DNA from: Octopus vulgaris
Taxonomy: Eukaryota
Direction: 5' to 3'
Assembly: GCA_951406725.2 (NCBI GenBank)
Contig: OX597821.1
Span: forward strand, 93,186,001 to 93,250,000
Length of the DNA: 64,000 bases
The translations under genes were made by a program, and so were the position numbers. Below the pieces are notes generated by a model. It was not told the origin of the DNA and did no database searches. It saw nothing but the letters and a program-made list of their open reading frames with translations. Below, in pieces: positions 3,245 through 47,717 of the stretch (position 1 is the stretch's first letter; every line of letters starts with the position of its first letter).

Positions 3245-3355
3245 ATCTGTAAATGTAATATATGACAATTATTCAGTAGCCATGATAAAACTCCAAGTTT
3301 CGGATGTCGAGGTGGGAATCCACGCCGCCATCTCTTCAGTTATCCGGCCATCGGA
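3245..3355 (-). mobile_element. Truncated copy of short TA-inserted element (family H1) with hammerhead-like core at 3284-3344
   Basis: Homologous to 23271-23479 and 29041-29256. Minus strand reads gataa-CTGAAGA-gatg...catc-c-GAAA-cttggag-TT-ttatc. Confidence 0.65.
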
Positions 3356-3752
3356 TATAGATATATATTCACTTATATATATTTTAGTATATTCACTTAT
3401 ATTCTATAGGCTATTTTACTTCAGTCATCGCACTGCGACCATTCTACGTCCTTCAAAAATTTAGTTGAGCAAGGATTTAGTCGAGCAAATAGACACAGTA
3501 CTTATTTTAAAATCTGTTATTTATTCTATCGGTTAATTTTGGTGAACCACTAAGCTATGAAGATGTAAACAAATCAACCATACCATTTGTCAAACTGGGG
3601 CGGTGCAAAACACAAAACCAAAAATGAAACACATACAAGCACACAAATAGATGTATTTGTACGTAATGATGCCAGTCATTAGTCATTGAATTTTAAATAC
3701 ACTGGACCTTTTAAAGTTTTGTCAATTGAAGGTAAAACTATGACTTTGGATA

Positions 3753-4299
3753 TCTCTCTCTATATAAACGGCAGTTTGTCTGTCTGTGTGTCTGAGTGTC
3801 TGTCAGGTTGTACCCTCACCCTGACCACAGCTTTCAACCGATTCTGATGAAACTTGACACACACATAGCCCAATGTCATAATTCAAAACTAACGCAGCGA
3901 AAATTTTGAAAAGTTTCCCCAGTTTTTAAAAAAATCGATAAATTCGACATGGGGTCGAGAGTCTCAGTTTTTTATATGCAACACATTTTATGTTGTAGTT
4001 TTCGCAACTTGCAATCGATTTTCACCAAACTCATGGTGAAGCTTAATGTTACCCTAAGAAACTTAATTCTAACGTTAGTTTTCCATGCAATACCTTACCA
4101 TCAGAAAAATCGATAAAATCATGCCATTTTGGGAAATCGCGTTTTCGCCCAAAGGGACAGCTAGGAACATCGTATACACAGAAGACATTGAAACCTACAC
4201 ATGCACCTTCGTTCCCTAGAAGGAAAGGACTAGATTGGGATTAGTCGTTGCCTACTAGGGGCTCTTACATACCCGGGCAACGCCGGGCTATGCTGCTAG
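3753..4299 (+). mobile_element. Non-autonomous Helitron
   Basis: 5' TC(TCTCTCTATATAAA), (TGTC)n near the 5' end, 3' hairpin CCCGGGCAACGCCGGG then CTAG; inserted between A and T with no TSD; removal restores the Gypsy frame. Confidence 0.9.
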
Positions 4300-4528
4300 T
4301 GCATGATAAAAAGGAAGTTGTCAGTCTAGACAGAGTTAAAAAAGTTTATTTCGATCAGTCTTCATGTCATGAGAATAGAAAGTTCAGCAACACATTTCAA
4401 AATAACACGAAACAGAACAATTCACAAAACAGCGAACTTAAGGTTGAAGAAAAGATCCACAAGTAAATTTTAAAATCACCTACTAGCGAAAAGAAAACTA
4501 AAAGTGGTAGAATGGTATATTTTCCCAA

Positions 4529-4950
4529 CAGGGCGGCGAGCTGGCAGAAACGTTAGTACGCTGGGCGAAATGCTTAGCGGTATTTCGTCTGCTGTTACGT
4601 TCTGAGTTCAAATTCCGCCGAGGTCGACTTTGCCTTTCATCCTTTCGGGGTCGATAAATTAAGTACCAGTTACGCACTGGGGTCGATGTAATCGACTTAA
4701 TACCTATGTCTGTCCTTGTTTGTCCCCTCTGTGTTTAGCCCCTTGTGGGTAATAAAGAAATAGGTATTTCGTCTGCCGTTACGTTTTGAGTTCAAATGCC
4801 GCCGAGGTCGACTTTGCCTTTCATCCTTTCGGGGTCGATTAAATAAGTACCAGTTACGCACTGGGGTCGATATAATCGACTTAATCCGTTTGTCTGTTCT
4901 TGTTTGTCCTCTCTGTGTTTAGCCCCTTGTGGGTAGTAAAGAAATAAATA
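4529..4950 (+). mobile_element. tRNA-derived SINE, family B, head-to-tail dimer
   Basis: GAGCTGGCAGAA A-box-like and GAGTTCAAAT B-box-like motifs; core gcctttcatcctttcggggtcgat; second unit restarts at ggtatttcgtctg; 15-bp TSD ggtatattttcccaa (4514-4528, 4951-4965). Confidence 0.9.
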
Positions 4951-5280
4951 GGTATATTTTCCCAAAAGATTTTCTCAGTTTGTTTGAATATATTCCTCGT
5001 GAACTTTTATATTCCCCGATTATTTTTATAAAAAAAAGATTTTATAATTTTTTCCAGAGAAATTATATTGCGCAATTTGATAAACTTTCCATGGGCGCTG
5101 TATTATTGTAAAACCGTGATGCGCAGTTATTTTCATTTGTTTAACATGTGGATACATTAGTAAATTTGTATACTTGACTTGCTAAAAATATTAATTCCAG
5201 CTATGTATTGAAATATATTTGTATTATTAATATTCTTTTTTTTTCGCAAGATTTTAACAATTTTTCTGGTTGAGGGCTTA

Positions 5281-6069
5281 TGTAGCGACACAAGTCATAA
5301 AAAAACTTTTATCGGCGGTAATATGACGTAATGGTCATGTTGCCCGAATAGGTATAATTGTTAGTTTCCCATTGGTTGAAATTACTTCTTATATTTGAAT
5401 TCTAACTTAGGTCAAAGAGAAATCTTTCACGAAATTCGGTTCTTAGAATTCAGCTATGAGCAGTTATAAAAACACTTATTTTGGGGAAATTGATCAGTGT
5501 TCGTTGGTTGTCACCCAATTCCACGACGCTCACTCTCTTGAGATAGTGGCTTTTGTTATGCCATGTCTATTATCTAATTCAACAAGGCTATTTTGAATTT
5601 TTTTTAAAAACTCTAGTAGCTTAGTTATGGAAGAATTAGCTAATATAAATTTTATGTCGTAACTCTACTCTTTGACTTATAAAAGTGTACAGTAAATATT
5701 AAATGTATGTAAAGAAACTAATTTAGCAAATAATTTCTTTTTCTTCCTTTTCTTCAACCTGCTGATGAAATTTATTTCTGCGACTATGAAACTGTTATTA
5801 TAGTGATGAAAAAGAGCGAGCTTTATTATCTTCAACATACATGCACGTTCAGCGTCTTGTGGTGTGTATAATTCACCAAGGCGTTTACGCAACCTGAGTT
5901 AAGATTTATATATGGTGATAAATGCTTATAATTAGGTTATAAGTGACGGGTTTATCGCCATGGATTCCTACTCAAGAAATATTTTATATTTATTATCTCT
6001 TCCAAGTCAAAACCGTTTTAAGTTGGTAATACACCGTTTGCCACTCGTCATTTCTTCTCAATACTAACA
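5281..6069 (+). mobile_element. Probable 3' LTR of the Gypsy relic
   Basis: Starts TGTAGCG right after a PPT-like ctggttgagggctta downstream of the integrase relic; TATAAAA at ~5466; candidate end CTAACA. The right boundary is uncertain. Confidence 0.45.
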
Positions 6070-6104
6070 CCGGTTATAAAACACCGTTATATATATAAAT
6101 ATAT

Positions 6105-45244: not shown

Positions 45245-45730
45245 GGTGGCGAGCTGGAAGAATCGTTAGCATGCCGGGTGGAATTCTTAGCTGTATTTCA
45301 TCTGCCGCTACATTATGAGTCCAAATTCCGCCAGAGTCAGCTTTACCTTTCATACTTTCAGGGTCAATTAAATAAGTACCAGTTATACACTGGGGCCGAT
45401 GAAATTGACTATGCCCCTCCCCCAAATTTCAGGTCTTGTGCCTATAGTAGAAAGGATTATTTATCTATTTAAACAAAAGCAGCAAGCTGGCAGAATTGTT
45501 AGCATACTGGACAAAAATGCTTAGCAGTATTTCATCCATCTTCATGTTGACTCAGGCCTTTCATACTTTCGGAGTCAATGAAATAAGTACTGGTCACATA
45601 CTGGAGTCAATGAAATAAGTACTGGTCACATACTGGAGTCAATGAAATAAGTACTGGTCACATACTGGAGTCAATGTAATTGATATTCTTTTCTCCGAAA
45701 TTTCAAGCCTTGTACCCATAATAGAAAGTA
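45245..45730 (+). mobile_element. Two old SINE B-related copies; the second has a 32-bp internal repeat (45571-45680)
   Basis: ggagtcaatgaaataagtactggtcacatact x3. Confidence 0.75.
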
Positions 45731-46122
45731 TCATTTATTTATAGCACCATTTGAGCATTGGGCTTCATGGAGGCAGTGACAGGTAACTGAGATCTTTGGT
45801 AATACACCATGCTTGTGTAGACTTGTTAAGCCAAGTGAGATCATAGTCGGGGCCGATGATGATGGCACATCAATGGCATCCACGCCAGTGGCAAGTAAAA
45901 AGCACCCACTACAGTCTTGGAGTGGTTGGCATTAGAAAGGGCATCCAACTGTTGAAACCTTGCCAAATCAGATTGGAACCTAGTGCAGCTCCCTGGGTTA
46001 CCAATTTTCAGTAAAACCATCCAACCCATGCCAGCATGGAAAGCGCCGTTAAATGATGATGATGATGAATTTAAACATCCAGTAAAGCTGGTAAACTATA
46101 GCAGACTGAGAAAGGGTATGTA

Positions 46123-46355
46123 AGGTGGCGAGCTGGCAGAAACGTTAGTATGCTTGGCGAAATGCTTAGCGGTATTTCGTCTGCGTTACGTTGTGAGTTC
46201 AAATTCCGCCGAGGTCGACTTTGCCTTTCATCCTTTCGGGGTCGATGAATTAAGTACCAGTTATGCACTGGGGTCGATGTAATCGACTTAATACCTATGT
46301 CTGTCCTTGTTTGTCCCCTCTGTGTTTAGCGGCCCCTTGTGGGTAATAAAGAAAT
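46123..46355 (+). mobile_element. SINE family B monomer, young
   Basis: Near-identical to 4533-4760. Confidence 0.9.
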
Positions 46356-46932
46356 AGGTATATAATTCTCCTCATATCCAAGAAGGTAAAAGAAAATCAA
46401 AAGAAAAACAGTACAAACCAAGAGCAGTTAAATGAATCGGAAGATCTTATTTATGGTTGGTTGGTCCCTAAAAATAAATTGCATTTACAAAATTGATTGT
46501 CTTTTAAAGACCGGTTTTAGAATGTCCTCTCCATCCCTAGCCCTTTCAGCTTGGTAATTTTTGCATTGGAACAAATAATGTCATAGGGTGTTTCTTTGTA
46601 TATAAAATAAGCTTCTTTTCTAAGTTTTTTTTTTATATAACAAGACATTAGGGGTGTGCATTATACATGAGAATCAAATGCTATCTATTTTAGTTTTATT
46701 TAATTTAAGATCTAAACCTGCACAATTTATGTACCATGAAATTACATATGAAACATTCGATGGATTTGTTTAAAAATCTGTTTTTATTCTCAGAAAATTT
46801 TAAATGCTTCAATTTATTAAGGTTTTAATTTTATAAAAAAAAAAGTTAATCAAAAAATATTTTTCAATTAAAAACAGTTGCGATTGAATTTTGTAATATA
46901 TCCATCCACTCGTACAAATTTTCATCTTATAC

Positions 46933-47140
46933 TTTATTTCTTCTGCCTTAGCGAAGTTGGAGGTATTATTTTCAGTCATGTTTGTTTGTTCATCTGTCTG
47001 TCCGTGGACAAGATATCTCAGGAACCGCTGGCTGGATTCTGATGTAGCTTTCAGAGATGTTTGGCTATATGACTGGCACAAACTGATTAGATTTTTGGGA
47101 CCAATCTGGTACCGGACAAGGATTCTGGATTATTTTTCAA
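46933..47140 (+). mobile_element. Helentron-associated (HINE/DINE-1-like) element, 5' part
   Basis: T-rich start, subterminal palindrome (cttctgcc..gttggagg), (GTTT/GTCT)n tract, then caagatatctcaggaaccgctggctggatt. Confidence 0.6.
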
Positions 47141-47519
47141 TGATGACTATAGCATGGGAATAGGAGTTCACGAAGGTACAGTCCTCATTCCTTTCCTCAT
47201 CATTATAGTCCTACAAGCCATCACAGAGGAGTTTAAAATTGGCCCTCTATGGGAATTCCTTAATGCTGAATTTATAGGGGAATTAGAAAATGGAGGCTAA
47301 AACTACAATCAAGAGGTCTTAAAGGTAAACTTAGCACAGATGAAAATTTTAGTAACTAGGAATGATGACACAACTCTGTATGTATAGGTAATGAGAAATT
47401 ATGGAGGTGAGCTCTTTCCAAGAAACAACAACATAGGTCTCAATTTACTGAGCGATTAGATTAAAGTATATATGTGTGTGTGTGTGTGTATATATATATA
47501 TATATATATATATATATAT

Positions 47520-47717
47520 AGTTAATCCAAACAAGAAAGCACAAAAAACACAATGCGAGGACGTGGAACAATTATAGTATTATTGGACGCTCAGGAAAGA
47601 AGGAAAGAAGGAGGGTTTAACGTTTCGAGCGGAGCTCTTCGTCGGAAACATAGGAGAAGGAAAGATCCAGAGAAGGGAAGACAGAGGAAACAAAAATTCG
47701 CCAACAGTACACACGAG
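47520..47717 (-). mobile_element. Family H2 short element in (TA)n; hammerhead-like motif 47615-47649
   Basis: Reverse complement of 10798-10990 with an identical core. Confidence 0.75.

Follow-up and report, generated by a model that had tools for sequence, protein, structure and literature searches.

We analyzed a 64-kb stretch of the Octopus vulgaris genome (GenBank assembly GCA_951406725.2, contig OX597821.1, positions 93,186,001 to 93,250,000; hereafter the window), which is 35% GC and rich in microsatellites, and in which an initial annotation made from the letters alone had listed ten sites with hammerhead-like ribozyme cores. These motifs, in a reading to which we give a probability of about 0.85, are hammerhead-shaped sequences within the 3' ends of Penelope-like elements (PLEs). 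Stumps of protein-coding PLEs make up families A, B and E, and likely also family H, while families C, D, F and G are ORF-less units of 354–523 nt that were likely copied in trans by the reverse transcriptase (RT) and endonuclease of a PLE.

A type-I hammerhead-like motif was present at all ten sites, at or no more than about 60 nt from the position given in the initial annotation. With a strict descriptor requiring both core boxes and stems of at least 4 (I), 3 (II) and 2 (III), in which the core change U4C was permitted only after the sequences had been seen, five sites were detected in the window, compared with 0.08 ± 0.27 (maximum 1) in 100 block-wise dinucleotide shuffles. The single copies at the remaining five sites fail this descriptor, and the majority sequence of the family has both core boxes and stem I. 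Strings of the form CTGANGA..GAAA at 3844, 5762, 13972, 16420, 51130, 58215 and 58299, and on the reverse strand at 48165 and 24512, fail the stem descriptor. An Rfam scan of the window returned no hammerhead family among the best 150 of 392 matches, which were mostly microsatellites matching microRNA families. The ten cores are borne out by the motif at each site and by the excess over shuffled sequence. They belong to seven multi-copy families: A (three sites), B (two sites), C, D, E, F and H. Comparison within the window by BLAST groups the sites at 3284, 23307 and 29157 (family A) and those at 10858 and 47615 (family B), and genome searches found every family in multiple copies. Two additional hammerheads, of families G and J, had been overlooked (Table 1). 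The first-look searches returned 1465 (A), 2502 (B), 2343 (C), 2447 (D), 4368 (E), 1104 (F), 994 (G) and 2110 (H) candidates, which are not copy numbers, 40 being scored for each family. The loci studied below (identified by L numbers where needed) are the top 12–30 matches per query, a choice biased toward long and similar copies.

Families A, B and E are 5'-truncated 3' ends, or pseudo-long terminal repeats (pLTRs), of protein-coding PLEs and not non-autonomous elements, because their longer copies lead into open reading frames (ORFs) encoding RT and GIY-YIG domains. In all three, a single ORF with an RT and, at its C terminus, a GIY-YIG endonuclease lies upstream of the pLTR, and the arrangement of a partial pLTR tandem, an inverted truncated arm and an optional tail was seen at L285, L286, L270, L136 and L149. 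Upstream of the family A pLTR, an approximately 1-kb 3' untranslated region (UTR) is preceded by a GIY-YIG domain with a CxCX5C linker (L215). Among the best 150 of 17,891 candidates in a protein search for family A, many had identical scores, with open frames of up to 717 amino acids. Three stop-free 717-amino-acid frames (L284–L286) are 96.6–99.2% identical and all end in the A pLTR, with L285 and L286 carrying an additional A pLTR upstream of the ORF. The L284 frame contains RWK, DKT, CxCX5C, CxxC and CxH, which are Hydra-clade motifs in the available text of PMC8557442; Pfam gave no match for this protein, whose assignment rests on the motifs. Longer copies of family B run through about 2 kb of CA-rich UTR to an RT/GIY-YIG ORF with DKG and a CX4CxxC linker (Pfam RVT_1, E = 1e-4, which falls short of Pfam's cut-off). 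At L270, an upstream B pLTR is followed by an ORF with an RT and zinc-finger linker and then by the approximately 2-kb CA-rich UTR toward the B pLTR, a Neptune-type pattern, although the linker alone does not separate Neptune from Nematis.

The ORF of family E has DKG, lacks a linker finger, and passes the Pfam cut-off for RVT_1 (E = 5.8e-8). A PLE ORF relic had been proposed at 38160; it is real, and it belongs to one family with the hammerhead at 38001, which had been called decayed and is indeed damaged in its 3' half. In most of the 20 loci fetched around this relic, the hammerhead lies about 100–250 nt past the ORF stop in the same sense, and a second, inverted copy is often found upstream. 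The hammerhead and relic stand head-to-head in the window, as expected of two arms of one insertion. Pfam returned nothing for the 61-amino-acid relic, nor for two of the three frames at L136.

Family H is probably also the pLTR stump of a protein-coding PLE; in 11 loci, its shared sequence can be followed upstream for about 220 nt, into a (TCT)n tract, without meeting an ORF. Its core at 6643 had been described as decayed as well, which it is not: the U3/A8 state is that of the family (13 of 16 copies), and only stem III of this copy is mutated. A separate, near full-length Neptune-type PLE at L271 (950–3400, plus strand) has a hammerhead with the same U3/A8 core in its 3' end; its ORF is an unrelated one.

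Several features of these protein-coding families were observed in passing. The Hydra-type subfamily represented by L284–L286 is young and very abundant, and possibly still active. Just 5' of stem I in family A (L163, L171–L178), a stretch of pyrimidines that ends in CAG looks like a 3' splice site beside helix I; several A copies begin at this stretch, and the young subfamily is without the CAG. A 3' splice site-like feature next to helix I has reportedly been described for Penelope of Drosophila virilis. Between the ORF stop and the hammerhead of family E, a tRNA-like stretch with A- and B-box-like motifs by eye (L141, L147; partial at window positions ~38380–38410) is followed by an (AAT)n tract, and ARAGORN found no tRNA gene in five family E loci. 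The 3' UTRs of B (about 2 kb, CA-rich; L236–L265, L270) and A (GT-rich) and the (TCT)n tract of H suggest that many microsatellites of the genome may be seeded by these PLEs. Another frequent family, located in the flanks of L053, L100, L221, L238, L274 and L285, has a minimal hammerhead like that of B with an apparent U at core position 6; at L274 it follows a Neptune-type ORF end.

Families C, D, F and G have a different organization. Their units measure 459, 354, 523 and 515 nt, respectively, each with one type-I hammerhead, and the longest stop-free stretch in a dimer of the unit is 57, 79, 69 and 50 codons. The sequence upstream of the hammerhead reaches a fixed position 1, where it is joined to the unit's own 3' end, so that the units are circularly permuted. 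We mapped 90 of 95 loci, 19–25 per family, after setting aside L071, L072, L076, L104 and L198, which were duplicated or overlapping. A tail-to-start junction occurs in 33 of the 90 (C 6/22, D 11/24, F 13/25, G 3/19). Two complete hammerheads in direct tandem were found at three loci (C 1/22, F 1/25, G 1/19, D 0/24) in this small and biased sample, the G case (L191) being a full hammerhead-to-hammerhead dimer. There are no multimer arrays among the 90 loci and no long head-to-tail satellite arrays of these units in the window, and the initial annotation's suggestion of a Penelope satellite was not upheld. C, D, F and G instead fit non-LTR (long terminal repeat) retrozymes, or non-autonomous PLEs, as judged from their sequence. 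The initial annotation's proposal of non-autonomous elements mobilized by Penelope RT stands in part: C, D, F and the overlooked G remain ORF-less, and the Penelope link itself is upheld by the ORFs of A, B and E and by insertion structure, but six of the ten sites (three of A, two of B, one of E) are stumps of protein-coding PLEs. The claim of at least six sequence-unrelated elements fails in one respect, as F and G are homologous across the unit (z = 6.4, 0/100 shuffles) and C aligns weakly with F (z = 3.3, 1/100). F and G therefore appear related, with C probably related to them, and D stands apart. A terminal hairpin is common by eye to the C, F and G tails, a similarity for which F–G alone passed the shuffle test (0/500; C–F 278/500, C–G 235/500). 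Sequence resembling F also occurs in contigs from four sequencing runs with four organism labels, which are uninformative on ends, strand and expression. No RNA run was among the listed runs that contain the F unit, and such contigs cannot reveal RNA circles because a circle junction equals a genomic tandem junction.

The short units are connected to PLEs by the structure of their insertions. Two classes of 3' end are seen in families A, C, D, F and G, with or without a tail of 66, 89, 46, 109 and 92 nt, respectively. Head-to-head insertions make up 46 of the 90 mapped loci of C, D, F and G, and the tail is present on one arm only in 35 of these, on both in one, on neither in one, and is unscorable in nine (35 of 37 scorable). 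An optional tail on one inverted pLTR is a described PLE signature in the available text of PMC8557442 and PMC3846280, and PMC11167929, as far as its available text goes, traces the asymmetry to two reverse-transcription start sites. A rough count of 3' ends at (TA)n of four or more repeats, against a background of 8.5%, gave 79/87 for A, 19/21 for B, 26/30 for C, 25/35 for F, 5/8 for H, 10/26 for G, 10/29 for D and 1/31 for E, with the G figure probably too low because its matches stop short of the end. The TA preference proposed in the initial annotation holds for A, B, C and F, is weaker for H, D and G, and is absent from E.

At window position 31462/31463, a stump of family J abuts the family C unit head-to-head with no (TA)n between them, a fusion that may stem from a single integration of two different RNAs or from a deletion at a later time. 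About 12 other loci have J-like copies that carry a tail of their own. In inverted insertions of family A, subfamily marks are usually common to both arms; by eye, they differ between the arms at L011, L022 and L029, a hint of two templates in one insertion. An apparent tendency of inverted arms and tandem copies to start at the cleavage site, suggested by a first, query-selected set of A copies, failed in less selected sets.

The majority sequences of the families contain both core boxes (CUGANGA and GAAA) and a stem I of 3–8 bp. The majority core is canonical in C, E and G, carries U4C in A (the commonest form, 72/102) and B (49/72), and has U3/A8 in H. Dimeric PLE hammerhead variants were reportedly described by Lunse et al. 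(2017), and these core variants may already be listed there. Stem II is closed by G10.1-C11.1 or another Watson-Crick pair in B, C, E and G and by A-U or G-C in H; it requires a bulge in A, and the closing pair is mismatched in D (C.A) and F (U.U). By majority sequence, B, C, D, E, F, G and H have the palindromic stem III that the initial annotation ascribed to most elements, while A and J have a 4-bp stem with a 1-nt centre. Variation is concentrated at N7, which differs from the family majority in 58 of 324 copies (17.9%; 326 distinct copies), compared with 0.6–1.9% at the six non-CpG core positions 3, 6, 9, 13, 14 and 15.1 and 5.3% in other columns; positions 4, 5, 8 and 12 deviate in 14.8, 4.6, 3.7 and 4.0%, partly in CpG. 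In family C, N7 is C in 16 copies, A in eight and of other or T type in four, with the remaining core nearly invariant. Stem covariation, which the initial annotation had named as a check, was formally counted for G: among 17 copies, four of six stem I pairs and one of four stem II pairs change on both sides, 89.9% of cells are paired (18–41% in slid controls), and 21 cells are changed on both sides (0/500 shuffles). The hammerheads appear to have been kept under selection while the families spread, because of this N7 variation and stem covariation.

A number of observations weigh against our reading or parts of it. Several majority cores are non-canonical, with U4C in A and B, and stem II of D and F lacking a Watson-Crick pair beside the core. 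In G, two of five covariation measures, pairs or pair types, are not significant (115/500 and 317/500), and the shuffle ignores relatedness among copies. Eight window motifs folded no better than shuffles by folding energy (z from -1.43 to +1.0). None of 34 upstream partial copies starts within 20 nt of the cleavage site, five start upstream of it, and the whole hammerhead is traversed by 12 of the 21 inverted arms listed. The cleavage site therefore does not set the 5' ends, in line with the in vitro result, in the available text of PMC11167929, that the main template is uncleaved RNA. In the part of the Xenopus retrozyme study that is available, one of nine dimers cleaved in vitro (bioRxiv 10.64898/2026.07.22.740005). 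The clade names Hydra, Neptune and Poseidon rest on motifs and not on a tree. Finally, the units and tails of C, D, F and G align with none of A, B, E and H above shuffles, and this comparison found no autonomous partner.

These points bear differently on the alternatives. The original proposal that all families are independent non-autonomous retrozymes or satellites is suggested by most window copies being 110–410 nt, non-coding and TA-flanked, and by the ORF-less state of C, D, F and G; it is already refuted for A, B and E by their extension into RT/GIY-YIG ORFs, the 90 loci of the other four show no arrays, and as a whole we consider it very improbable. Hardly conceivable is the interpretation of the palindromic families A and F as miniature inverted-repeat transposable elements (MITEs), that is, DNA transposons with terminal inverted repeats. 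The A copies at 23266–23478 and 29042–29255 and the F copy at 43054–43463 do resemble such elements, but arm lengths and junctions vary between copies, which already excludes it, one arm has an extra tail, and many copies have no inverted arm. Our own candidate of A as a 176–220-nt mini-element or MITE was likewise dropped once longer copies were seen to lead into the PLE ORF. Improbable, if less so, is that C, D, F and G are mere remnants of protein-coding PLEs yet to be found, stumps or rare internal deletions that were never mobile as short units. A and B had misled us in the same way before their long copies were retrieved, and the 19–25 loci mapped per family identified no partner. Against this, tail and unit position 1 meet at one and the same place in 33 of 90 loci, on many contigs; the sequence upstream of position 1 in the copies read is an inverted arm, flank that is unrelated, or the tail of the unit itself; no frame around the full circle exceeds 79 amino acids; and G has both the L191 dimer and covarying subfamilies.

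The alternative to be taken most seriously concerns the ribozyme itself: the hammerhead shapes may be catalytically dead relics, or protein-binding folds that mark PLE ends without cleaving. We regard this as unlikely. U4C lowers activity in vitro in the available text of PMC3088659; PLE hammerheads cleave poorly alone (PMC4209133) and are dispensable for insertion in vitro (PMC11167929) in the available portions of those papers; D and F have the mismatch at the base of stem II; and the cleavage site does not define the 5' ends. On the other side, variation is concentrated at N7, the sole free core position, stems I and II covary in G, and the U3/A8 pair of H, published for PLE hammerheads (PMC4209133), is a covariation described as active in what is available of PMC3088659. 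Loss of catalysis is compatible with PLE identity and would alter the ribozyme step only.

For the identification as PLE ends and PLE-copied units, we infer a process in which PLE proteins make target-primed copies from two start sites, the short units are mobilized in trans, and dimers cleave by way of the palindromic stem III. A PLE protein would nick (TA)n or AT-rich DNA, as the flanks suggest, and reverse transcription would begin at one of two fixed sites 46–109 nt apart near the RNA's 3' end; the two end classes are observed here, and their reading as two start sites is taken from the available text of PMC11167929. Copying would mostly end early and leave a stump, and a second copy begun at the other start site would often be joined head-to-head, a presumed step that would leave one arm tailed and the other tail-less. 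The short units would be transcribed from partial tandems or as circles, a proposed RNA form that would give copies longer than the unit, as seen in the junctions. Tandem transcripts are the predicted substrate of the hammerheads, which would cut them mostly as dimers formed by way of the palindromic stem III. From the shared (TA)n targets and the longer stem III we would guess at a Hydra-type partner for C, F and G, without sequence homology.

A bolder version, which we offer tentatively and at slightly worse than even odds, is that the related C, F and G, which have a tail hairpin in common, and also D are ribozyme RNAs that propagate themselves, a PLE with (TA)n targets copying them in trans from both start sites on circular or multimeric templates. 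If so, the scars of their insertions would directly show, in structure, that retrozymes of animals depend on PLE enzymes for their movement, the C and J fusion would be a case of two different RNAs that were joined during a single integration, and the non-canonical cores that have become fixed (U4C; mismatched 10.1-11.1) would be hammerhead variants assisted by protein.

Table 1. Hammerhead-bearing elements and related fragments in the window. Hammerheads of families A–D, F and H run from C3 to N17; that of E is given by its C3.
Family	Start	End	Strand	Hammerhead	Description
A	3241	3355	-	3339-3289	Tail-less 5'-truncated pLTR stump of Hydra-type PLE, diverged
H	6503	6735	+	6649-6678	3' end, U3/A8 core; (TCT)n-rich part upstream in longer copies
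D	9217	9280	+		3' fragment without hammerhead
B	10796	10996	+	10862-10888	pLTR stump of Neptune-type PLE; minimal hammerhead, U4C core
A	23266	23478	-	23363-23313	Head-to-head insertion; tail-less hammerhead arm (G12 mutated) and inverted arm with 66-nt tail
A	29042	29255	+	29163-29213	Head-to-head insertion; inverted tailed arm 29042-29152 and forward hammerhead arm
C	31152	31462	-	31457-31380	ORF-less unit, positions 152-459 with tail; tail end repeated 31067-31105
J	31463	31541	+	31472-31501	Stump, head-to-head fusion with C; hammerhead decayed
G	32026	32365	+	32095-32144	ORF-less unit, older
D	33203	33511	-	33409-33377	ORF-less unit, positions 1-309, tail-less
E	37920	38119	-	38041	Inverted pLTR arm of Poseidon-type PLE; minimal hammerhead, damaged
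E	38160	38394	+		Forward arm, GIY-YIG coding end and 3' UTR start; same family as 38001 hammerhead
F	43054	43463	+	43231-43294	ORF-less unit, positions 63-419; short inverted arm 43054-43106; stems I and II mutated in this copy
B	47513	47722	-	47645-47619	Second copy
H-related	60232	60422	+		Diverged copy without 5' core box

Elsewhere in the window, a 184–187-bp repeat, which we take to be an octopus short interspersed element (SINE), occurs as two or three tandem units at 4579–4946, 35601–36157, 41596–41968 and 44321–44872. A GC-richer, repeat-like stretch spans 58000–58400 and contains two of the CTGANGA strings that fail the hammerhead descriptor.

Much of the background is already in print, including PLE pLTR hammerheads, thousands of solo copies produced by truncation, the (TA)n targeting of Hydra and Neptune elements, and non-LTR retrozymes with a proposed PLE origin. 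Among the papers listed in our literature searches, none was found on octopus hammerheads, and in the available main text of a recent octopus repeat annotation the words ‘ribozyme’ and ‘non-autonomous’ appear nowhere (PMC13282606). By the present results, one genome contains nine or more hammerhead-bearing families of PLE type, which come from three clades as assigned by motif. The four ORF-less units with the PLE tail signature add support from insertion structure to a link otherwise argued from homology and co-occurrence. The young Hydra-type family, whose frames are full-length, could be the source of an enzyme for asking by which protein retrozymes are moved and what purpose the hammerhead of PLEs serves. 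Both are worth following, and units of this kind are easily misfiled as SINEs, MITEs or unknown repeats.

The comparisons that follow draw on the available portions of the cited papers. Like the metazoan PLE pLTR hammerheads of Cervera & de la Pena (2014, PMC4209133), those described here have the type-I fold with an extra nucleotide after A9, G10.1-C11.1 and a palindromic 15.2-16.2 in B and E, together with the U3-A8 core variant in H, and they occur mostly as single motifs from truncated copies or as opposite-strand pairs. The same text mentions no cephalopod, and neither U4C as a family majority (here A and B) nor a non-Watson-Crick 10.1-11.1 (D and F). In the classification of Craig et al. 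(2021, PMC8557442), family A resembles the Hydra clade in RWK, DKT, the CxCX5C linker, CxxC and CxH around E and N, (TA)n targets and the hammerhead, family B resembles Neptune in DKG and the CX4CxxC linker, and family E resembles Penelope/Poseidon in DKG and the lack of a linker finger. Partial tandems, an inverted 5'-truncated arm and an optional tail are common to those PLEs and ours, but the described tails are 30–40 bp compared with 46–109 nt here, and family A differs in having young copies with frames of intact length.

The closest parallels for C, D, F and G are the animal non-LTR retrozymes (Cervera & de la Pena 2020, PMC7229834; Li, Clavereau & Pollet 2026, bioRxiv 10.64898/2026.07.22.740005), which are likewise ORF-less, low-GC units of a few hundred nucleotides with one type-I hammerhead each, co-occur with PLEs and have been proposed as their non-autonomous derivatives. 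Unlike those retrozymes, the octopus units are mostly dispersed partial tandems of 1–1.5 units or inverted pairs with PLE tail asymmetry, and not arrays. The non-autonomous Chlamys PLEs, such as MRC1 (PMC8557442), differ in mostly lacking a hammerhead and in resembling their partner's 3' end, a homology of which the comparison of C, D, F and G with A, B, E and H gave no sign. These Chlamys elements and the trans-mobilized, pLTR-flanked DNA of Adineta (PMC3846280) share with the octopus units the theme of short or foreign sequence with pLTR structures moved by PLE proteins. In the two retrozyme studies, the link to PLEs was drawn from homology and co-occurrence, whereas in the octopus it is supported by the insertion signature.

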